NCBI GenBank assembly: GCA_045638945.1
Contig: JAZUCF010000018.1
Span: 1,954-65,953 of the forward strand
Direction of reading: 5' to 3'
Length of the DNA stretch: 64,000 bases
From: Clostridia bacterium
Lineage (GTDB): Bacteria > Bacillota > Clostridia > UMGS1883
Numbering within the stretch: position 1 is the stretch's first letter; every line of letters starts with the position of its first letter. Below, one piece after another: positions 44,602 to 57,832 of the stretch. Position numbers and translations under genes: made by a program. The notes beneath the pieces were generated by a model. That model ran no database searches. It saw nothing but the letters and a program-made list of their open reading frames with translations, and was not told the DNA's origin.

Positions 44602-44655
44602 ATATAATACCTTCTTTTAAAACTTCTTTTGCGAAAGGATGACCTTGTCATCCGC

Positions 44656-45987
44656 TCACTTTCCAAGACAGAATTTCTCAAAGATGCGGTCAACGGTTTC
44701 CTGATTTATGCTTATTCCCTCGGCTTCTCCCAAAAATTCTATTGCATTACCTATATCTATCGCCGCAAGGTCGCTGAAAAAGCCGTCTTCCATTGTTTGT
44801 ATTGCTTTTTCTATGCTTTCATATGCTCTTACCACAGCTTCAAACTGCCTTTCATTTGCTATAAAAGCGGTGCTTTCAGTGCTTCCTATTATATCCGACA
44901 CAGCTTTTTTCACCTTTTCTATGCCTTCATTTTCCTTTGCACTGATTTCAATATACCCCTCTTTTCCTTTTTCGTCAAGGTCTTTTTTATTTGCTACAAG
45001 AATATATTCTTTTTCTTTTATTCTTTCAAGAATTTCTTTTTCTTCCTCCGTTAAATCCCTGCCGCATTCCGTTACAAATATACATATATCGGCATTTTTA
45101 ATATAATCGTAGCTTAAATCCACACCTATTTTTTCTACCACATCATCACTTTGGCGAATACCTGCCGTATCACCGAATTTTACGGGGATTCCGTCTATAT
45201 CGGCATATTCCTCGACCACATCACGTGTTGTGCCTGCAATATTTGTAACAATGGCTCTTTTTTTCTCTACAAGGGCATTAAGGAGCGAGCTTTTACCCGT
45301 ATTGGGGATTCCGCAGATGGCACAGCTTATACCGCTGTTTAAAGCTTCGCCTCTCCTCGCACTTTTCTTAAGCTCTGCAAGCTCGTTTTTTATGTTTTCA
45401 AGCTTGCCCGATAATTCTCCGCCTGCAAAGGTATCAATATCTTCTTCGGGAAAATCGCTTGCAACCTGTATTGATGCCAGTAAATCAAGAAGCTCCTCAC
45501 GAATTTTTATAATGGGCTTTGTTATACCGCCCTCAAGTCTGTTCACGGCGGCATAAAGTGCGGCATCCGTCTTTGATTCAATAATATCGCTTACGGCTTC
45601 CGCCTGAGTAAGGCTCATTTTGCCGTTTAAAAAGGCTCTTTTTGTAAATTCACCCTTCCCCGCCATACTGCACCCTGCCTGAAGCAGTGCATCTATAATT
45701 CTTTCCACACTGACAGGCGAACCGTGGCAGCTTATTTCACATACATTTTCCCCTGTAAATGAATTGGGTGCTCTGAAAACACTTACCAATACTTCATCTA
45801 TTTCACGGTTTTCGCATATTGCTTTTCCGTATACAATGGTATATCCGTCGGCATTAGTTATTTTTTTATTTGATTTAACTATCTTCTGCGTTATTTCAAG
45901 GGCTTTTTCACCGCTTACTCTTATTACGGCAATTCCTCCTTTTCCGCGGGGTGTGGAAAGGGCACAAATCGTATTATTTTCAATCAT
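44656..45987 (-). CDS. mnmE: tRNA modification GTPase MnmE
   Basis: APNSFTGE, GIPNTGKSS, GTTRD, DTAG, FCLGK. Confidence 0.96.
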   Translation of the reverse strand: MIENNTICALSTPRGKGGIAVIRVSGEKALEITQKIVKSNKKITNADGYTIVYGKAICENREIDEVLVSVFRAPNSFTGENVCEISCHGSPVSVERIIDALLQAGCSMAGKGEFTKRAFLNGKMSLTQAEAVSDIIESKTDAALYAAVNRLEGGITKPIIKIREELLDLLASIQVASDFPEEDIDTFAGGELSGKLENIKNELAELKKSARRGEALNSGISCAICGIPNTGKSSLLNALVEKKRAIVTNIAGTTRDVVEEYADIDGIPVKFGDTAGIRQSDDVVEKIGVDLSYDYIKNADICIFVTECGRDLTEEEKEILERIKEKEYILVANKKDLDEKGKEGYIEISAKENEGIEKVKKAVSDIIGSTESTAFIANERQFEAVVRAYESIEKAIQTMEDGFFSDLAAIDIGNAIEFLGEAEGISINQETVDRIFEKFCLGK

Positions 45988-46117
45988 TTTTATCACTGCC
46001 TTTAAAATAAAAATAAGAGGCAAAAGTACACTTCTCATAAGATTTTATCTTATAAGAAAGACCTTTCACCTCTTTCTTTCATTATTTGATTTAATTAAGC
46101 ACATTCCGAAAAGGCTC

Positions 46118-46333
46118 AAAAGTAGTACAGAATTCATGAACTGAACCCTTTAGGGCTTGCCCGAAGGCGTACGTGGGTACGTCGAGGGTGAAGTTCGTGG
46201 ATAGCAAAACACATATAATCCGAAATTCGCACCAGCGAATTTCTTCTTCACTCAATCAAAGAACCCTTGTAAGTTACTTCACTAAAGGCACTTTTCCTTG
46301 TTTTTTTTGTGTTTTGCGATCTGTGCTGCTTTT
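46118..46333 (+). repeat. Structured intergenic repeat, family A copy 3
   Basis: Core 46124-46210; AAAAGTAGTACAGA pairs with TCTGTGCTGCTTTT. Confidence 0.9.
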
Positions 46334-46341
46334 CAGGCTTT

Positions 46342-47034
46342 TTATACTCCTTCGAGTTCGTTTTCTTTGCGGTTATAACGATATTTTGAAACGTATCCTT
46401 CGCCGTACTCTTTCTTTTTCGTTGTAATTACAACAGAGCGGTTGGGGTCTTTACCTGTTGAATAAGTAGTTACGTTTCTGTATTCCTGGAGTGCGGAATG
46501 AATAATTCTTCTCTCATTGGGATTCATAGGCTCAAGAGTTATGCTCTTTCTTGTTCTTGCAACAACGCCTGCCATTCTTTTTGCAAGCTTTATAAGAGTT
46601 TCTTCTCTTTTTCCGCGGTAGTTTTCCGTATCAATGGTAACACGGATGTAGTTTTCCTCACCCTTATTTACAACCAGGGATGTAAGGTACTGGAGGGCAT
46701 CGAGAGTATCGCCTCTTCTGCCGATAACCTTTCCTACTTCCTCACTGTCTCCTAATATTTCGATATTTACTGTTTCATCCTCGTAAGAAGCCTTAATCTC
46801 TACGTCAATTCCAAAGCTATTCATTACGCTTTTAATGTACTTTTCAGCTTTATTAAGAGGAGTTTCCTCCATTTTTACTCTTACCTTTGCTTCCTCAGAG
46901 CCGATTCCCAAAATACCGCGCTTTCCCTCGTTGATAACTTCTATTTCTACTTCATCCTTTGTTACTCCGAGCTCGTTAAGCGCCGCATTTACTGCATCAT
47001 CAATTGTTTTTGCGCTTTTTTCAATTATTATCAT
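46342..47034 (-). CDS. jag: RNA-binding protein Jag/EloR/KhpB
   Basis: Jag N domain, KH (IGRRGDTLDALQ), R3H (ERRIIH). Confidence 0.93.
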   Translation of the reverse strand: MIIIEKSAKTIDDAVNAALNELGVTKDEVEIEVINEGKRGILGIGSEEAKVRVKMEETPLNKAEKYIKSVMNSFGIDVEIKASYEDETVNIEILGDSEEVGKVIGRRGDTLDALQYLTSLVVNKGEENYIRVTIDTENYRGKREETLIKLAKRMAGVVARTRKSITLEPMNPNERRIIHSALQEYRNVTTYSTGKDPNRSVVITTKKKEYGEGYVSKYRYNRKENELEGV

Positions 47035-47035
47035 T

Positions 47036-47887
47036 TTATTTTTTTCCTTTCAGAGTTATTTCCGATTGTATTTTATTAGTTATAGCCTTATTAATAACTG
47101 TTTGCTGCAGAAGCTGCAATGCTGTTGATACAAACCAATAAAGTGACATTGCAATGGGCATCATAAATATGAAGAATAATGTCATTGCGGGCATCATCCA
47201 TACCATTGCGTTACCCATGCTTGCTGCCTGCTCGTTACCCTTACTTTGTGCTTCCATCTGCTTCTTTGTAAGAAGTGAGGACGCAACTGTTGCTAAAAAT
47301 GCCAGTGCAGGGAACAGCCACTGCATCAAATCTTTACTTCCCGAGGGAATCTTGGCAAGGTTCATTCCGAAAAGCTCGAAATTAATAGGTTCTTTTCCAA
47401 GTGATCTTATTGCCTCAGAAACGCCGTTCATACCGCAGATATTAACGTCCTGACCTTTAATTTTTCTTACGGCTTCAATCCATTCTTTATTCTGACCAAG
47501 CTCTTTCATTTCTTTTATAATACTTGCCTTGTCAAGCTGAAGAATACATTCTATGGGATTATAAATAACACCGATAAATCCAAAAAGAATAAGCATCTGA
47601 AGAATAAGGGGAAGACATCCGCCTAAGGGGTTAACGTCATACTTCTTATAAACCTTCTGCATTTCTCTTGCAAGAGTATCACGGTCGTTTTTATACTTGT
47701 TTTGAAGTTTAATTATTTCAGGCTGAATAAGCTGTGTTTTCGTAGTATTTTTCTGACTCCTTATAGTAAGCGGAATTGTGCAAAGTCTTACAAGTATTGT
47801 AGCTACGATAAGCGTAATACCATAGTTACCTATTAAGTTATAAATAGGTCTTATTATAAAAGCCAGCGGTCCCTGTAAAATGTACAT
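47036..47887 (-). CDS. yidC: Membrane protein insertase YidC
   Basis: NYG, QPEI, NPLGGCLP, LYW; syntenic position. Confidence 0.92.
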   Translation of the reverse strand: MYILQGPLAFIIRPIYNLIGNYGITLIVATILVRLCTIPLTIRSQKNTTKTQLIQPEIIKLQNKYKNDRDTLAREMQKVYKKYDVNPLGGCLPLILQMLILFGFIGVIYNPIECILQLDKASIIKEMKELGQNKEWIEAVRKIKGQDVNICGMNGVSEAIRSLGKEPINFELFGMNLAKIPSGSKDLMQWLFPALAFLATVASSLLTKKQMEAQSKGNEQAASMGNAMVWMMPAMTLFFIFMMPIAMSLYWFVSTALQLLQQTVINKAITNKIQSEITLKGKK

Positions 47888-47912
47888 ATTTTCTCTCCTT
47901 TTGATATTCCCG

Positions 47913-48125
47913 TTAGGGAACTGGGTCATATCCGCCTTTACAAAACGGATTGCATCTTAAAATTCTTCTTACAGACAAATAAAGCCCCTTTATAACACCA
48001 TGCTTTTTAAATGCTTCCAAAGCATATTCCGAGCATGTGGGCGTAAAGCGGCAACAAGGTTTTTTAAGCGGTGAAATATATTTTCTGTAAAATTTTATTA
48101 AACCAATAAAAACATTCTTAATCAA
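47913..48125 (-). CDS. yidD: Membrane protein insertion efficiency factor YidD
   Basis: [24 protein letters not shown]. Confidence 0.95.
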
Positions 48126-48453
48126 TTAAATTCAGCCCGCTTTCTTTAAGCGCACCTTCTAAATCTCTCCCAATTTCATGAAATGATGCTTTGGCACTGC
48201 TTGTGCGTGCCACCAAAACCAAATCATATCCCTGGGGTATACCCTCTAAAAGTCTGTAATTTTCTTTTAAAAGCCTTCTTACTCTGTTCCTTGTAACGGC
48301 ACAGCCTATTTTGGGTGAAACCGTTATACCCAGTCTTGTAAAAGAATATCTGTTCTTTCTGTAATATAAAACCAGTCTTTTTTTTACAACTGATTTTCCT
48401 CTGTAATAAAGTCTTTTAAAATCGCTGTTTTCTTTGATGGAAATAATTTTCAT
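48118..48453 (-). CDS. rnpA: Ribonuclease P protein component
   Basis: [16 protein letters not shown]. Confidence 0.95.
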
Positions 48454-48556
48454 TTTAATTCGTTTTACGTTCTTTCCGTTTAATTGTCTTTTTAAATGTA
48501 CTTATGCCGGGCGGATAAATCCGCCCGTGGCATATCTTTACATTTATAAGAATCAA

Positions 48557-48691
48557 TTACGCAGAAAGTACACGTCTGCCTCTCTGACGGCGTCTTCTGA
48601 GAACCTTTCTTCCGTTAGCGGTACTCATTCTTTTTCTGAAACCGTGATCCTTTTTTCTCTTTCTTACATTAGGCTGATAAGTTCTGAGCAT
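48557..48691 (-). CDS. rpmH: 50S ribosomal protein L34
   Basis: Read manually: [44 protein letters not shown]; GGAGG RBS. Confidence 0.97.
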
Positions 48692-48894
48692 CTTGTGCAC
48701 CTCCTTAAATTTATAAAAGCCTCTCAGAGGCTATTTTTACTGAGTTTACCATAACGATACCAATTTAGTATACATAAAGATACCTTTTTTGTCAACAATT
48801 TTTTTATTTTTTTAATTTTAGTCCATATTTTAGTTGAATTTCGTCTTTATATTTGTTATAATATATTAGATAATATAATTATATATATGGGCAG

Positions 48895-49012
48895 TTATTA
48901 ACAGTTTTTGTATTTATTTTTGTTTTTTTAACAGGTTTAATGCCCTTATATCCCTGTAAAACGCGACTTATTAACAGGTTTTATTAACAGCCTTGTTAGT
49001 AAGTGTTAAAAA
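48895..49012. other. oriC part 1: cluster of variant DnaA boxes upstream of dnaA
   Basis: TTATTAACA at 48895, 48968, 48981; TTTTTAACA at 48925; reverse TTACTAACA at 48994 and TTTTTAACA at 49004. Confidence 0.75.
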
Positions 49013-49035
49013 TTTTTTTGAAGGAATGTTTACTT

Positions 49036-50337
49036 ATGACATCTGATTTAATGCAGTTATGGACAGAGTGTCTTATACTTATGGAGGACGAGGTTACGCC
49101 GGTTGGCTTTTCCACCTGGATTAAAGACATAAAGCCCGTTAAAATCAATGACAGTGTTTTAACTCTTTCCGTAAGCACAAACATTATTAAAAACATGGTC
49201 GAGCTTCGCTACAGCGACCTTATAAAGAACACACTTACCGAAATAACTGGAAGATATTTTGAGGTTGAGTTTGTTATAGGCGATAATTTTTATGAAAAAA
49301 GAAGACCTGCCTATTCCAATACATATGAAAAATATACCTTTGATAATTTCGTTGTAGGTAATTCCAACAGATTCGCACAGAGTGCTTCTCTTGCGGTTGC
49401 GGAGGCTCCTGCCTATGCTTACAATCCTCTGTTCCTTTACGGCGGAGTAGGTCTTGGTAAAACTCATCTCATGCACGCTATCGGAAATTATATAAAGGGC
49501 AATAACCCCGATGCAAGGATTGAGTTTTTAAGTGCAGAAACCTTTACCAACGAGCTTATAAATTCAATTAAAGATAATACAAATCAGGAATTTCGTGATA
49601 AGTACAGAAATATAGATGTTCTTTTGGTTGACGATATTCAGTTTATTGCAGGTAAAACCACTACCGAGGAAGAATTTTTCCATACATTTAACGCTTTGCA
49701 TGAGGCAAATAAGCAGATAGTTCTTACAAGCGACCGTCCTCCCAGTGAAATTAAAACCTTGGAGGAAAGGCTTCGCAGTAGATTTGGCTGGGGACTGATG
49801 TGCGAAATACAAAGCCCCGATTACGAAACCAGAATGGCTATTTTAAGGAAAAAAGCACAGGATGACGGAGTGGTAATAAGCGACGATATTATTGAATTTA
49901 TTGCACAGAAAATAAAATCAAATATCCGTGAGCTTGAAGGAGTTTTCAACAGAGTTGTGGCATACCGCGGACTTATTAACAAGGAAATAACAATTGACGT
50001 TGCAATGGAGGCTCTCAAGGACTATGGAGATTCCAAGGAAAAGAAGATAACTCCCGAATATATAATTGAGGCCTGTGCAAAGTTTTACAATGTTAAGAAA
50101 GAAGATATTTTCTCCGAAAAGAGGACAAAGGATGTGGCGTTTGCCCGTCAGGTTTCTATTTATATAATAAGAGAAATTACTAATTTCTCATTTCCTAAAA
50201 TAGGCTCTTTCTTCGGAAAAGACCATGCTACAGCCATTTATGCGATAAAGCAAGTTACAAAAGCAATGGAAAATGACATAAGCATTAAGATTAACATTGA
50301 AGGTCTTATAAACGATATAAAAGGAGCTAATAATTAA
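49036..50337 (+). CDS. dnaA: Chromosomal replication initiator DnaA
   Basis: YTFDNFV, GGVGLGKTH, DDIQF, RLRSRF, NIRELEG. Confidence 0.97.
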   Translation: MTSDLMQLWTECLILMEDEVTPVGFSTWIKDIKPVKINDSVLTLSVSTNIIKNMVELRYSDLIKNTLTEITGRYFEVEFVIGDNFYEKRRPAYSNTYEKYTFDNFVVGNSNRFAQSASLAVAEAPAYAYNPLFLYGGVGLGKTHLMHAIGNYIKGNNPDARIEFLSAETFTNELINSIKDNTNQEFRDKYRNIDVLLVDDIQFIAGKTTTEEEFFHTFNALHEANKQIVLTSDRPPSEIKTLEERLRSRFGWGLMCEIQSPDYETRMAILRKKAQDDGVVISDDIIEFIAQKIKSNIRELEGVFNRVVAYRGLINKEITIDVAMEALKDYGDSKEKKITPEYIIEACAKFYNVKKEDIFSEKRTKDVAFARQVSIYIIREITNFSFPKIGSFFGKDHATAIYAIKQVTKAMENDISIKINIEGLINDIKGANN

Positions 50338-50510
50338 CAGTTTCCTGTTAATTAACAGTTTGGCTAAAAAACTTTCAAATTTTATTTACAGCTCTTTTAA
50401 CAGGTTTAAATTTTAATAAATCCTTTTATAAAGCACCTTTTGAAAGTTACTGACAGTTTAAACCTTACTACTGTTACTCTATTATTTAATATTATTATAT
50501 ATTATATTTT
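50331..50510. other. oriC part 2: variant DnaA boxes, DnaA-trio-like tract and AT-rich unwinding element
   Basis: TAATTAACA (50331, 50349), TTATTTACA (50382), CTTTTAACA (50394), TTACTGACA (50447), then CCTTACTACTGTTACTCTATTATT and an AT tract. Confidence 0.75.
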
Positions 50511-50535
50511 TTCTCTGAAAGGATGAAATAAAAAA

Positions 50536-51636
50536 ATGAAATTTTTCTGTGACACAAAAGCTTTTTCGGAAGCTATAAATATTGTTTCAAAGGCAGTTGC
50601 CGTTAAATCACCCATTCCTCATTTAGAGGGAATTTTACTTGATGCAAAGGGTGGTACTCTTACTCTTTTGTCAAACAATCTTGAAATTTCAATCAAAACT
50701 TCAATAAGTGCAAATATAAGCGAAGAGGGAAGAATCGTTCTTAATGCAAAGATGCTCAGTGATATTGTAAGAAAACTTCCTCAGGACGTTTGCGAAGTTA
50801 ATACAAACGACAAATATAACGTTTCTATTATATGTAAAAATGCAGATTACAAAATTGTGGGACTTAATGCAGATGAATTTCCCCAGCCCCCGATGGTTGC
50901 AAAGAAGAGCAGTGTTACTTTAAAGAGTGAAAAGCTTCGTGAAATAATAGGAAAAACACTCTTTGCAGTATCTTTGGACAATGCAAGAAAAATTTTAACA
51001 GGCTCTCTTTATGAGATTGAAAATAACACACTTACCGTTGTAGCGGTTGACGGTTACAGACTTGCTCTTACAAAAATGGAGCTTGAGGGTGAATATGAGG
51101 ATGCTAAATTCATAATTCCCGGAAAAACACAGAGTGAAATTTCAAAAATTATAAGCGGAAATAAAGATGAAGATATAAATATATCCTTCAGTGAAAATTA
51201 CGCTCTTATAGAGGGTGAAGGTGTTACAATCACTTCCCGTCTTATAGAGGGTGAATTCTTCTCCTACAGAAATACGATCCCCTCCGAATCAAAATATATT
51301 GTAAAAACAGATTGCTACTCTTTCAACAAAGCTATTGAGAGAGTGGAGCCTATTATTGATGAAGTAAGCAAAAACTGCGTTCGTTTCAAATTTGAAGACG
51401 GTAAAATTATAATAAGCTGTGAAACAGTTCTCGGTAAAGTAAATGATATAGTAGAGTGTGACCACTTTAATGAAAGCATTGAAATAGGTTTCAACTACAA
51501 ATATCTTCACGATGCTGTTTCAAGATGTGAGGGTGATGAAATAGAACTGAAGATGAATTCTCCCTTTAATCCCCTTATCATTAACTCTGTAGACGACGAA
51601 AGCTGCCTGTTTATGGTACTTCCCGTAAGAATATAA
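50536..51636 (+). CDS. dnaN: DNA polymerase III beta clamp
   Basis: AVDGYRLA, SRLIEGEF, GFNYKYL, VLPVR. Confidence 0.96.
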   Translation: MKFFCDTKAFSEAINIVSKAVAVKSPIPHLEGILLDAKGGTLTLLSNNLEISIKTSISANISEEGRIVLNAKMLSDIVRKLPQDVCEVNTNDKYNVSIICKNADYKIVGLNADEFPQPPMVAKKSSVTLKSEKLREIIGKTLFAVSLDNARKILTGSLYEIENNTLTVVAVDGYRLALTKMELEGEYEDAKFIIPGKTQSEISKIISGNKDEDINISFSENYALIEGEGVTITSRLIEGEFFSYRNTIPSESKYIVKTDCYSFNKAIERVEPIIDEVSKNCVRFKFEDGKIIISCETVLGKVNDIVECDHFNESIEIGFNYKYLHDAVSRCEGDEIELKMNSPFNPLIINSVDDESCLFMVLPVRI

Positions 51637-51647
51637 AGGACTAAATT

Positions 51648-51854
51648 ATGGAAAAAATAGAAATCACAACAGAATATATAAAGCTTGACTCTGCTTTAAA
51701 ATACTGTGGAATTGCTGAAAACGGCGCTCACGCCAAGGAAATGATTTTGGAAGGGTTAATTAACGTCAACGGTGAAAAAGAGCTCAGACGCGGCAGAAAG
51801 CTTTATAAAGGCGATGTATTTAAAATAGATGATGAGGAATTTGAAATAGGATGA
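51648..51854 (+). CDS. yaaA: S4-domain protein YaaA
   Basis: EYIKLDSALK, VNGEKELRRGRKL. Confidence 0.9.
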   Translation: MEKIEITTEYIKLDSALKYCGIAENGAHAKEMILEGLINVNGEKELRRGRKLYKGDVFKIDDEEFEIG

Positions 51855-52906
51855 AAGCCTCAAAGTTAGAACTTTATAATTTCAGAAATTATGAATATGA
51901 AAATATTTCTTTTTCTGACGGTGTAAATATAATACACGGCGAAAACGGTATGGGAAAAACAAACATACTGGAAGCTGTATATTATTTTTCATACGGCAGG
52001 AGCTTTCGTTCAAGCGGAAAAGAAATTATAAAAGACGGCGAAAAAGAAGCCAGAATTTCCCTTTCTTTTGAAAATAGTGAGAGAAAATTGGAAAGCGACA
52101 TTAAATTTTTAAGCGGAAAAAGAAAAGAAATCTATATAAATGAAATTGAGCTTAAAAAAACAAGTCAGCTTTTAGGTAATTTTATCTGCGTACTTTTCAC
52201 TCCCGACGAAATGGGAATAATTAAAGGAATGCCGGAAGTAAGGCGTAAATTCTGCGACAGTTCAATTATGCCTCTTCGTCCGAATTACATAAAAGAGCTT
52301 ATAAAATACAGAAACATACTTAATCAAAAAACGGCTCTTTTAAAATCCAGACAATATGAAACCCTTGATGTATGGAACGAGAAATTGGCAGAAACGGGTA
52401 GCCGTATTATGACGCTTCGCTCCAGCTATATTGAAAGGATAAATAAAAAAGCGGCAGAAATTCAAAAAGAAATTTCCGACGGGAAAGAGGAGCTTTCTCT
52501 TGTGTATAATCCGTCTGTTAAATTAAGGGAAAATTACCTTGAAAAACTTACGGAATACAAAGAAAAAGAGAAAGAAAACCTTTTCTGTATGGTTGGAGTT
52601 CACCGTGATGAAATAGATATTTTAATAAACGGAAAGCTTGCAAAAAATTATGCAAGTCAGGGACAGATAAGAACTGCTGTTTTAAGTCTTAAACTTGCTG
52701 AAACGGAAATAATTAAAGAAGAAACAGGGGAATATCCCGTTATGCTTCTTGATGATATTTTAAGTGAACTTGATAAATCAAGGCGTGAATTTTTAATATC
52801 CAGGATAAAAGGAAAACAGATTATAATAACATGTACGGATATTGAAAATTACTTTAACGATAATGTAAATATCATACAAATAAAAGACGGTAAAAAGGTG
52901 AACTGA
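51851..52906 (+). CDS. recF: DNA replication/repair protein RecF
   Basis: NFRNY, GENGMGKTN, SQGQ, LLDDILSELD. Confidence 0.96.
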   Translation: MKASKLELYNFRNYEYENISFSDGVNIIHGENGMGKTNILEAVYYFSYGRSFRSSGKEIIKDGEKEARISLSFENSERKLESDIKFLSGKRKEIYINEIELKKTSQLLGNFICVLFTPDEMGIIKGMPEVRRKFCDSSIMPLRPNYIKELIKYRNILNQKTALLKSRQYETLDVWNEKLAETGSRIMTLRSSYIERINKKAAEIQKEISDGKEELSLVYNPSVKLRENYLEKLTEYKEKEKENLFCMVGVHRDEIDILINGKLAKNYASQGQIRTAVLSLKLAETEIIKEETGEYPVMLLDDILSELDKSRREFLISRIKGKQIIITCTDIENYFNDNVNIIQIKDGKKVN

Positions 52907-55300: not shown

Positions 55301-57832
55301 ATGGCTAAAAATAAAAAATACGAAGATTCCCATTTCGAGGAATACTTCGATACCCAAACCATTGTAAATATTGATATTGAAGACAGAATGAAGGAGGCTT
55401 TCATCGACTACGCGATGAGCGTTATCGTAAGCCGTGCACTTCCCGATGTTCGTGACGGTCTCAAGCCCGTTCACAGAAGAATCCTCTACTCAATGTACGA
55501 GGAAAATCTTACTCACGACAAGCCTTACTTCAAGTCAGCTACCACAGTTGGTAACGTTATCGGTAGGTATCATCCCCACGGTGATGCATCCGTTTACGAC
55601 GCTCTTGTAAGAATGGCGCAGGATTTCTCCATGCGTTACCCCCTTATCGAGGGTCACGGTAACTTCGGTAGCGTAGACGGCGACCCGCCGGCTGCTTACC
55701 GTTATACAGAAGCCAGAATGAGCAAGCTTTCCAACGTTCTTCTTGAAAACATCGAAAAGGACACAGTTGACTTTGCTCCCAACTTCGACGAAAAGAGAAA
55801 AGAGCCCACAATTCTTCCCACAAGAATACCCACACTTCTTGTTAACGGCAGTAGCGGTATTGCCGTTGGTATGGCGACAAATATACCTCCCCATAACCTT
55901 ACTGAAGTGCTGAACGGTGCTATGGCGCAGATTGATAATCCCGACATCACCGTTGAGGAACTTATGGAGCACATTCAGGGACCCGACTTCCCCACAAGTG
56001 CTACAATTATGGGAAGAAGTGGTATAAGAAGCGCATACAATACAGGTAGGGGTAAAATTGTAATCCGTGCAAAAGCAGAAATTGAAGAACATAAAGATGG
56101 AACAAGCTCCATTATCGTTACTGAACTTCCGTATCAGGTTAATAAAAAGATGCTTGTGGAATCCATTGCAAGCCTTGTTAAGGAAAAGAAGATTGAGGGA
56201 CTTTCCGACATCGATGACCATTCTTCAGACCGTGTTGGTATCCGTCTTGAAATTTTCCTTAAGAGAGATGCAAATCCACAGGTTGTACTTAATCAGCTTT
56301 ATAAATATACACGTCTGCAGGACAGCTTCAGCGTAAATCTTCTTGCAATCTGCGACGGAAAGCCCAAAACAATGGGTCTTAAGGAAGTTCTGGATAACTT
56401 TATCACATTCCAGAAAGAAATCGTTACAAGAAGAATCAGATTTGACAAGGCAAAAGCGGAAGCAAGAATGCATATACTTGAAGGTCTCCGTATTGCCCTT
56501 GCAAATATTGATGAAATTATCGTAGTAATCAGAAATTCCTACGACGATGCCAAGGAAAATCTTATGGCTCGCTTCGGTTTCTCTGAAATTCAGGCACAGA
56601 GCGTACTGGATATGCGTCTTGCACAGCTTCAGAGATTGAACGGCGAAAAAATTGACGACGAATACAACGAACTTACTGCAAAGGTTGAGGAATACGCAGC
56701 AATTCTTGCTGATGAAATTCTCCTTCTCGGTCAGATTAAGAAGGAACTTACCGAAATCCGTGATAAATTCGGCGATGAAAGAAGAACAAATATCGAAAAT
56801 GTTATGACGGAAATCGACATAGAAGACCTTATTGAGGAAGAAGAAAGTGTAATAACTCTCACCAATGCAGGTTATATTAAGCGTATGCCCACCTCCACAT
56901 ACACCAGTCAGAACCGTGGTGGTAAGGGTATCAAGGGTATGACCACCAAGGATGAGGATTTTGTAAAGACAATTATGGTGGCATCAACCCACGATAATAT
57001 GCTCTTCTTCACCAACCGCGGCAGAATGTACCGCCTGAAAGGTTATCAGATTCCCGAATCCAGCCGTCAGGCAAAGGGTAGCGCAATCGTAAACCTGCTT
57101 CCTGTTGAAAAGGACGAATATGTAACAGCTCTTATCGCGCTCCGCGAATTTGAAGATGATAAGTATCTTCTTATGTGTACAAGAAACGGCGTAATCAAGA
57201 AAACTGCCGTTACAGACTATAATACAGCCAGAAAGGGCGGTATCATCGGTATTTCCCTTGACGAGGGCGACGAGCTTATAAGGGTTGAGCTTACAAACGG
57301 TGAAAATGACATCGTTATCGGTACTTATAATGGTATGGCAATCCGTTTCAATGAAAAGGATGTCCGCTCTATGGGCAGAGTTACACGTGGTGTTAAGGCT
57401 ATCACTCTCCGTGACGGCGACTATATCGTGGGAATGTGCCTTGCGTCCGAGGATACACAGCTTCTCGCCGTGTCCGAACTTGGCTACGGTAAGAGAACCG
57501 ATCTTTCCGAATACCGCGTTCAGTCCCGTGGCGGTGTAGGTATCAGAACATACAAGTGCAGTGAAGTGACAGGTAATGTGGTAAGCGTAACTACAGTTAA
57601 GGACGACGAGGATATTATGCTCATTACTTCCGAAGGTGTTATTATAAGAATTCCCGCATCGGGCATCAGCACCATCGGCAGAAGCACCAAGGGTGTTCGT
57701 CTTATGCGTCTTAAAGACGGCGTAAAGGTAGTTTCCATCGGCATTACCGAGCACGAAGAACCGGAAGAAGAAACCGTGGAAGAAACTCCTGCAGAAAATG
57801 CAGAGACAGCTCCCACCGCAGAAAATGAATAA
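55301..57832 (+). CDS. gyrA: DNA gyrase subunit A
   Basis: DGLKPVHRR, HPHGD, AAYRYTE, GyrA-box QNRGGKG. Confidence 0.97.
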   Translation: MAKNKKYEDSHFEEYFDTQTIVNIDIEDRMKEAFIDYAMSVIVSRALPDVRDGLKPVHRRILYSMYEENLTHDKPYFKSATTVGNVIGRYHPHGDASVYDALVRMAQDFSMRYPLIEGHGNFGSVDGDPPAAYRYTEARMSKLSNVLLENIEKDTVDFAPNFDEKRKEPTILPTRIPTLLVNGSSGIAVGMATNIPPHNLTEVLNGAMAQIDNPDITVEELMEHIQGPDFPTSATIMGRSGIRSAYNTGRGKIVIRAKAEIEEHKDGTSSIIVTELPYQVNKKMLVESIASLVKEKKIEGLSDIDDHSSDRVGIRLEIFLKRDANPQVVLNQLYKYTRLQDSFSVNLLAICDGKPKTMGLKEVLDNFITFQKEIVTRRIRFDKAKAEARMHILEGLRIALANIDEIIVVIRNSYDDAKENLMARFGFSEIQAQSVLDMRLAQLQRLNGEKIDDEYNELTAKVEEYAAILADEILLLGQIKKELTEIRDKFGDERRTNIENVMTEIDIEDLIEEEESVITLTNAGYIKRMPTSTYTSQNRGGKGIKGMTTKDEDFVKTIMVASTHDNMLFFTNRGRMYRLKGYQIPESSRQAKGSAIVNLLPVEKDEYVTALIALREFEDDKYLLMCTRNGVIKKTAVTDYNTARKGGIIGISLDEGDELIRVELTNGENDIVIGTYNGMAIRFNEKDVRSMGRVTRGVKAITLRDGDYIVGMCLASEDTQLLAVSELGYGKRTDLSEYRVQSRGGVGIRTYKCSEVTGNVVSVTTVKDDEDIMLITSEGVIIRIPASGISTIGRSTKGVRLMRLKDGVKVVSIGITEHEEPEEETVEETPAENAETAPTAENE

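Follow-up and report, generated by a model that had tools for sequence, protein, structure and literature searches.

Bipartite replication origins, in which clusters of DnaA boxes lie on either side of the initiator gene dnaA and lead into DnaA-trios and an AT-rich element, have been described for Bacillus subtilis (incA/B-dnaA-incC) and Clostridioides difficile (oriC1/oriC2; PMC7561715). The Escherichia coli consensus box, TTATnCACA, already leaves position 5 free; a helix spanning residues 434-451 of DnaA reads TnCACA while Arg399 reads TTA, and the T435M and R399A proteins are defective in box binding (PMC5742627). Six base-contact residues (R399, P423, D433, H434, T435 and H439) are listed as conserved in Firmicutes (PMC7561715). 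A consensus allowing A at position 6 (A6) is in print as TT(A/T)TC(C/A)ACA for Mollicutes and TT(A/T)T(C/T)(C/A)ACA for Acholeplasma (PMC3322544), and TTATTAACA has been reported upstream of dnaA in Mycoplasma hominis, M. mobile and M. arthritidis (PMC2751442). Here we describe boxes of this type at the dnaA locus of an uncultured gut Clostridia-type bacterium with an ordinary two-part chromosome replication origin. The DNA analyzed, termed the window, is a 64-kb stretch (positions 1954-65953 of contig C18) of an assembly of 1.63 Mb in 30 contigs, which is 84% complete and has a GC content of 41.4%. Gene order, the two box clusters and the succession of boxes, trios and AT-rich element were like those of B. 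subtilis and C. difficile; unlike in these species, the boxes read TTATTAACA(G) without the C at position 6 (C6), and DnaA has Ala for T435 and Tyr for H439.

A genus-wide change of the DnaA box word

The canonical word TTATCCACA, sought with at most one mismatch, had 31 matches in the window, none of them within 44603-52500, and TCCACA was absent from the two spacers flanking dnaA (332 and 198 nt, 22-23% GC). These results agreed with a first-pass annotation of the window, which had reported the lack of canonical boxes in the spacers and had expected origin finders to score the site poorly; a finder searching for TTATCCACA and tolerating one mismatch would miss every box of this origin. TTAACAG was present in 17 copies in the window, 8 of which were within 48898-50403, and of the four exact copies of TTATTAACA, three were in the upstream spacer (48895, 48968 and 48981) and one, at 49973, was inside dnaA. 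When one mismatch was allowed, TTATTAACA had 48 matches in the window, as compared to a mean of 31 and a maximum of 47 in 100 shuffles, and the matches were dense at 48895-49012 and 50331-50390. Enrichment in the spacers was assessed on both strands against 1,000 dinucleotide-preserving shuffles: TTAACA occurred 8 times (shuffle mean, 1.15; maximum, 5) and T[TA][AT]T[TC]AACA 7 times (shuffle mean, 0.31), and neither count was reached in any shuffle. Genome-wide word frequencies exhibited no skew for TTATTAACA (observed/expected, 1.01) or TTATCCACA (0.98). With a listing rule of at most two mismatches and ACA kept, 12 box-like 9-mers were counted, 6 upstream and 6 downstream of dnaA, where the first-pass annotation had given about eleven. 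All 12 had ACA by virtue of the selection rule, while position 6 was A in 10 of them and T or G in one each, such that none had the C6 of TTWTNCACA. Seven of these sites fit T[TA][AT]T[TC]AACA exactly and, hence, the Mollicutes/Acholeplasma-type consensus TT(A/T)T(C/T)(C/A)ACA.

Origin loci were collected from 31 genomes of the window's genus, from two neighboring families and from the remaining members of the family, in which 54 of the 64 genomes searched had a DnaA match at an E value of ≤1e-60. To be counted as a box, on either strand, a 9-mer had to have T4 and A7-C8-A9 and to match T-T-A in two or more of its first three positions; boxes were typed as TA (TTATTAACA-type), CA (TTATCAACA-type) or CC (TTATCCACA-type). 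Loci with fewer than four countable boxes were left unclassed (n = 9), and five were left out of the counts: L029 (no DnaA), L030 (a truncated copy of 46% identity), L039 and L047 (divergent dnaA-like copies) and L275. The 32 loci of the window's genus had 192 TA, 31 CA and 8 CC boxes. In two sister genera, TCCACA, TCAACA and TTAACA were found side by side within single origins (g10, 15 TA, 28 CA and 25 CC in 10 loci; g14, 6 TA, 13 CA and 17 CC in 8 loci), while the origins of the neighboring family f3 had CC boxes almost exclusively (2 TA, 3 CA and 39 CC in 10 loci). The shift in box word is, thus, real, genus-wide and stepwise, running from CC only through a mixture within one origin to TA only. 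AT pressure as the sole driver of A6 was ruled out by the 41% GC genome and by the TCAACA boxes of another family, f51, located in loci of 54% GC.

Some of the genus assemblies held more than one dnaA. One assembly (G062) had two full-length dnaA genes of the genus type (L034 and L035), 82 to 85% identical to that of the window, its contamination being given as 7; the divergent copies L039 (G066) and L047 (G074) had 44 to 46% identity and were located on short contigs. The multiple copies in these three assemblies are probably due to mixed bins.

Drift of the box word at positions 5 and 6 in an otherwise ordinary bipartite origin is, in our view, the probable explanation, the Ala at residue 435 (Ala435) being a later and optional change. 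The layout would be that of the Bacillus/Clostridium type, with rnpA-rpmH followed by boxes, dnaA, further boxes, trios, an AT-rich element and dnaN, and the word would have moved from TTATCCACA to TTATTAACA(G) by steps within the family. The mixed boxes of single origins suggest that the DnaA of the sister genera already accepts A6; in the window's genus, the C6 form would then have been lost altogether. Domain IV would bind the variant boxes as usual, with the equivalent of Arg399 reading the unchanged TTA and the helix reading T..ACA, and the resulting DnaA complex would open the AT-rich element that adjoins the last box and the trios. Thr435Ala would be a follow-on change inside the genus, neutral or fine-tuning in effect, and not the cause of the shift.

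The TTATTAACA word also occurs beside the genes of DnaAs with a canonical helix. When all species genomes were scanned for TTATTAACA pairs lying within 30 nt, at least 121 stretches were obtained; among those listed, 8 were beside dnaA, and these formed two groups. The first combined a fully canonical helix with mixed boxes, TTATTAACA being found beside TCCACA (L152, with the helix GGRDHTTVIHA, L073 and L116), while the second had A6-only origins and consisted of a metagenome-assembled genome of a small-genome member of the Bacilli (GKNHATVIHA) and Metamycoplasma orale. The first group would fit an explanation in which the specificity of the window's DnaA is unchanged, still preferring TTATCCACA, and the origin is composed of weaker sites filled cooperatively by ATP-DnaA, much as most boxes of E. 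coli oriC are low-affinity sites filled as clusters (PMC5742627). We consider this explanation improbable, as the 32 genus loci share no C6 box that could serve as an anchor: none of the 8 CC-type matches was seen at a conserved place. Replacement in the sister genera was, moreover, gradual rather than a loss of the origin, and a second cluster on contig C9 (described below) also consists of A6 words.

The variant words as probable DnaA boxes in a bipartite origin

All three exact TTATTAACA(G) boxes of the upstream spacer are on the plus strand (48895..48903, 48968..48976 and 48981..48989), as is TTTTTAACA(G) at 48925..48933, while TTACTAACA (48994..49002) and TTTTTAACA (49004..49012) are on the minus strand. 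Downstream, a plus-strand TAATTAACA(G) box at 50331..50339 overlaps the dnaA stop codon and is kept across the genus. A few bases past this codon, a 14-bp perfect palindrome, CTGTTAATTAACAG (50345..50358), contains two overlapping head-to-head boxes (50346-50354, minus strand; 50349-50357, plus strand) and is kept in the 20 genus loci listed. Two further plus-strand boxes, TTATTTACA(G) at 50382..50390 and CTTTTAACA(G) at 50394..50402, are followed by a last, degenerate copy, TTACTGACA(G), at 50447..50455. Most genus relatives have TTATTAACA or a TTAACA pair at this place, abutting the trios; the window's copy has decayed. A run reading TTA-CTA-CTG-TTA-CTC (50465..50479, plus strand), matched in position by an ACTACT run in genus relatives, can be read as DnaA-trios, and the AT-rich stretch after it (50480..50515) is, by its position, likely to be the unwinding element. 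The first-pass annotation had placed its last box just before such a tract and an AT-rich region, an order found here and common to the genus relatives. More widely, the 20 listed loci shared a downstream layout of a box on the dnaA stop codon, the palindrome, one or two mid-spacer boxes and a box or box pair before the trios.

The genus was also used in order to examine parts of the box that had played no role in selection. A total of 259 sites from the 32 genus dnaA loci were picked by the T[TC]AACA core alone, and the unconstrained flanks were T1 in 220 (85%), T2 in 183 (71%), A3 in 158 (61%) and G10 in 147, indicating that the rest of the canonical box is conserved. The sister genera have equivalent boxes at equivalent places: the box or pair next to the trios is TTAACA in the window's genus, TCCACA in g10 and, in g14, either TCCACA or TCAACA together with TTAACA. 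The flanks, the genus layout and these equivalents point to the TTATTAACA-type words being DnaA boxes, which would be bound, and presumably preferred, by the cognate DnaA.

It is very improbable that the TTAACAG words are, instead, sites for another DNA-binding protein, with the true DnaA boxes being different. The palindrome past the dnaA stop codon does resemble a dimer site, and a phased TTATTAACA pair is found far from dnaA in many Bacteroidota, but most TTAACAG copies are single and nonpalindromic. Seven of nine positions match the DnaA box, with T-T-A conserved in the unconstrained flanks; the words replace the TCCACA boxes of the sister genera, including the trio-adjacent one; and no other repeated word was seen to stand out in the spacers.

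The Bacteroidota pair consists of two TTATTAACA exactly 11 nt apart (20-bp phasing), and at least 24 pattern matches of this kind were found (L075, L095, L106, L138, L140 and approximately 19 others). Of six loci examined, five had the pair immediately 3′ of fmt, with a RecQ-type gene upstream of the pair, while a DUF2851 gene was present instead in the remaining locus. No Rfam match was obtained at the pair.

The identity of the origin rests on synteny and Pfam domains, the turn in GC skew and the enrichment of boxes in both spacers. The open reading frame list and Pfam searches gave the order rnpA-rpmH-dnaA-dnaN, with divergent orientation at the rpmH-dnaA junction. On the minus strand are rnpA, for the RNase P protein (48118..48453; PF00825, E value of 3.4e-26), and rpmH, for ribosomal protein L34 (48560..48703; PF00468, E value of 9.7e-21), with mnmE, jag and yidC, named by order and size only, on the same strand and side. 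The upstream, incA/B-like half of the origin is the rpmH-dnaA spacer (48704..49035; 332 nt, 23% GC), which has six variant boxes. The dnaA gene (49036-50337, plus strand) encodes a protein of 433 amino acids with the domains Bac_DnaA, Bac_DnaA_C and DnaA_N, whose scores of 250.6, 85.8 and 49.3 bits were all above the curated cut-off; the match to 8BTG had an E value of 5.7e-136. It was the only dnaA detected in the 84%-complete assembly. The dnaA-dnaN spacer (50338..50535; 198 nt), with its boxes, trio-like run and AT-rich stretch, forms the downstream, incC-like half. It is followed on the plus strand by dnaN, encoding the beta clamp (50536..51636; PF00712, PF02767 and PF02768), a small S4-like open reading frame, and recF and gyrB, the last two named by order and size only. 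GC skew was −0.10 to −0.17 over 36 to 48 kb of the window (−0.17 at 44 to 48 kb) and, beyond that point, +0.04 to +0.12, changing sign at approximately 48 kb, at the site of the origin. The skew also flipped near 4 kb and around 24 to 36 kb (window positions 1-36000), which may reflect gene orientation or rearrangement. The host does not have the features of a mollicute: dnaA reads through under translation table 11, the GC content is 41%, and the gene order and relatives are Clostridia-like.

A canonical box cluster elsewhere, which would have spoken against the first-pass annotation, was not found in the 84%-complete assembly, there being at most three C6 boxes per 300-nt stretch genome-wide. 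A second cluster of the variant word was detected outside the window, on contig C9 (genome G000) at approximately 55,900-56,350, with TTAACA and TGTTAATAA boxes in a gene-free gap of approximately 800 nt flanked by a pgi-like gene and an ACT-domain gene. These boxes may form a DnaA-box cluster separate from the origin.

Residues 435 and 439 of the recognition helix

The sequence FGKDHATAIYA, reported exactly by the first-pass annotation, forms the start of the recognition helix of the window's DnaA (residues 393-403; 50212-50244, plus strand) and, when aligned to 1J1V, 8BTG and 3PVP, stands opposite FGGRDHTTVLHA of the E. coli domain IV chain 1J1V. Ala398 (50227-50229) takes the place of E. 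coli Thr435, and Tyr402 (50239-50241) takes that of His439; E. coli numbers are used for these places below. Four of the six base-contact residues are kept, as Arg363, Pro387, Asp396 and His397, the residue list being that of PMC7561715 and the residue-to-base contacts being taken from secondary sources. From these two substitutions the first-pass annotation had proposed co-evolution of initiator and origin: Thr435Ala, along with His439Tyr, would have re-tuned the helix to read TTATTAACA and made the DnaA an A6 specialist. That the box word has changed was borne out, and across all 32 genus loci, but residues 435 and 439 do not explain the shift.

Within the genus, box type was the same whichever residue was present at position 435: 129 TA, 19 CA and 3 CC boxes in 20 loci with Ala435, 33 TA, 1 CA and 5 CC in 7 loci with Thr435, and 30 TA, 11 CA and 0 CC in 5 loci with Ser435. 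In an IQ-TREE tree built from DnaA domains I to III only, the seven Thr435 loci branched outside the supported 24-row clade (SH-aLRT, 98) in which Ala435 appears, and Ser435 arose later, inside the same clade. There were, in all, three changes at residue 435 within the genus, with the box word unchanged. As the early-branching Thr435 lineages carry TA boxes and the outgroups have Thr435, the change in the boxes preceded Ala435.

The Tyr at place 439 is uninformative as to box type. Of the 65 DnaAs of the order, 56 had this residue, among them 8 of 10 in the CC-box family f3 (39 CC versus 2 TA), and in an independent-pairs test 6.7 of 7 pairs exhibited no box-type difference. The box of Mycobacterium tuberculosis is a CC-type word. 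The DNA-binding domain of M. tuberculosis DnaA (PDB 3PVP/3PVV) is like that of the window in having a short loop and Tyr at the place of His439 (FGRDHTTVMYA versus FGKDHATAIYA); unlike the window's DnaA, it keeps Thr435. His439Tyr is, thus, unrelated to the box change.

A back-translated pattern was used to search for further Ala435 lineages. Among 401 genomes of the window's phylum, 11 had matches (6 control matches), and these yielded families f51 and f59; two other candidates, L260 and L263, were chance matches without a DnaA. The same search of 401 genomes of the phylum of G076 gave three matches, all in an already known clade. Family f59 (GGRDHATVLHA) combines Ala435 with mostly TTATCCACA boxes (20 CC, 8 TA and 6 CA in 5 loci), which, with the genus data, argues against Thr435Ala as the matching change. 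A TGTTGATAA ... TGTTAATAT pair also occupies a constant position ahead of the TTATCCACA boxes in all five f59 origins (L268-L272), and A6-type words therefore hold fixed positions even in a CC-dominated origin. Ala435 was likewise read in all five Bacteroidota DnaAs checked (L279-L283; DHATVLHA) and may be the rule in that phylum. Exact TTATCCACA or TTATTAACA clusters were not obvious in two complete Bacteroidota chromosomes, and no clear boxes flanked dnaA; oriC is commonly far from dnaA in this group (PMC4755523).

A second order, that of the small-genome Bacilli assembly (order B; 61 genomes sampled), was examined for repeats of the shift. Its 7 Ala435 loci had 61 TA, 12 CA and 0 CC boxes, its 14 Thr435 loci had 18 TA, 12 CA and 79 CC, and its 40 Ser435 loci had 99 TA, 99 CA and 152 CC. 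Ala435 arose at least three times in order B (the L193 clade, L221 and L247), always with TA and CA boxes only. For the two orders together, 24 of 28 Ala435 DnaAs were associated with A6-only origins, 4 with mixed and 0 with C6-only origins, as against 2 A6-only, 20 mixed and 10 C6-only for Thr435 (8 had too few boxes). Two more Ala435 lineages had mostly A6 boxes, namely, g13 (L063; 3 TA, 2 CA and 0 CC) and f51, whose boxes are mostly TCAACA (4 CA and 1 CC in 2 loci). These data, along with the defect of E. coli T435M in box binding (PMC5742627), which the first-pass annotation had also cited, speak for a helix re-tuned by Thr435Ala. Nonetheless, only 5 independent pairs were available for Ala435, of which 2.5 were in the same direction and 0.1 in the opposite direction (median p, 0.375), and two Ala435 lineages had been found through their boxes, an ascertainment bias. 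The association of Ala435 with A6 is, thus, suggestive: the sign is that proposed in the first-pass annotation but is not significant once relatedness is allowed for. Given this, the Thr435 and Ser435 DnaAs of the genus, the order of events on the tree, family f59 and the Bacteroidota DnaAs, we judge co-evolution led by residues 435 and 439 to be unlikely.

Other residues were compared in the same manner. Independent-pairs tests for A435, T435, M438, N433, P423, H439 and Y439 were not significant in any case (4 to 9 pairs each). No single determinant emerged in domain IV: users of A6 and of C6 were separated in the initial 28 loci by residue 438 and non-contact columns alone, and among 125 loci only Ala435 and Met438 were concordant in both orders, with Pro423 and Lys337 being opposite. 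On the tree of order B, A6-only origins arose at least four separate times, each time along with changes in helix 5; these included Asp433 to Asn, Ser435 to Ala and Met438 to Ile, Val or Ser, as well as changes at 439 and 423. A position-5 box variant was also present in this order, the DnaA of L239, which reads NHTTVMH, being flanked by six TTATGCACA-type boxes. A broader explanation, which we hold only tentatively and as less probable than drift of the box word, is that the read-out of position 6 can evolve in DnaA and has repeatedly been re-tuned. Independent C6-to-A6 lineages would then converge on Ala435, Asn433 and loss of Met438, and the window's DnaA would be an A6 specialist no longer preferring TTATCCACA; the lineages in question may be this Clostridia genus, at least four lineages of the small-genome Bacilli order and the Mollicutes.

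Several points weigh against drift of the box word with Ala435 as an optional addition. No change in DnaA was found that explains the box shift, although the requirement for TnCACA described for the E. coli-type DnaA (PMC5742627) would lead one to expect some protein change. By raw Fisher tests, which ignore relatedness, enrichment of Ala435 and depletion of Met438 track A6-only origins in both orders, and all seven order B Ala435 DnaAs are without CC boxes, so that a real contribution of residue 435 is possible. The root of the genus tree was set by outgroup reasoning alone, and several of its deep forks are unsupported. Boxes were counted over set lengths on either side of dnaA (upstream, 400 nt; downstream, 260 nt), which include some coding sequence and from which chance A/T-rich matches were not subtracted, and the failure to find a canonical cluster applies to an assembly that is 84% complete. 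Finally, a preference of the window's DnaA for A6 over C6 is a prediction from sequence.

Variant boxes in other lineages

As A6 boxes have already been proposed for Mollicutes (PMC3322544, PMC2751442), the window is a further example in another lineage. It is like Mollicutes and Acholeplasma in the word itself, in the degenerate positions 5 and 6 and in the location of boxes adjoining dnaA, and unlike Mollicutes in having a Clostridia-type gene order, a GC content of 41% and a total, genus-wide loss of C6; its origin has 12 boxes, as compared to two reported upstream of dnaA in M. hominis (PMC2751442). Lineage-specific boxes are recognized by Ori-Finder 2022, including TTTTCCACA boxes in cyanobacteria and a 12-mer in Thermotoga maritima (PMC10225481), and for Epsilonproteobacteria variation in helix 5 at residues 435, 438 and 439 has been discussed with no settled rule (PMC5043019). 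The window resembles these cases in combining a clade-wide box variant with variation at helix-5 contacts and is unlike them in that the change is at position 6; as far as these sources describe them, a residue-to-base rule has been established in none of these lineages, and the same is true of the window. In a search of open-access articles, no paper was found on A6-only origins in Clostridia or on residue 435 in relation to position 6.

A suitable box motif for this genus and family is TT(A/T)T(C/T)(C/A)ACA. The results also contain a caution, namely, that a changed contact residue beside a changed site proves no co-evolution before timing and exceptions have been checked. The family forms a graded natural series of origins (CC only, mixed and TA only) with DnaAs differing at few contact residues, while order B provides independent repeats of the shift; together, these bring a direct binding test of what determines the read-out of position 6 by DnaA within reach. 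Should the lineages with A6-only origins indeed have converged on A6-specialist DnaAs, they would constitute a natural initiator-origin series and, with it, a basis for deriving a residue-to-base rule for DnaA.

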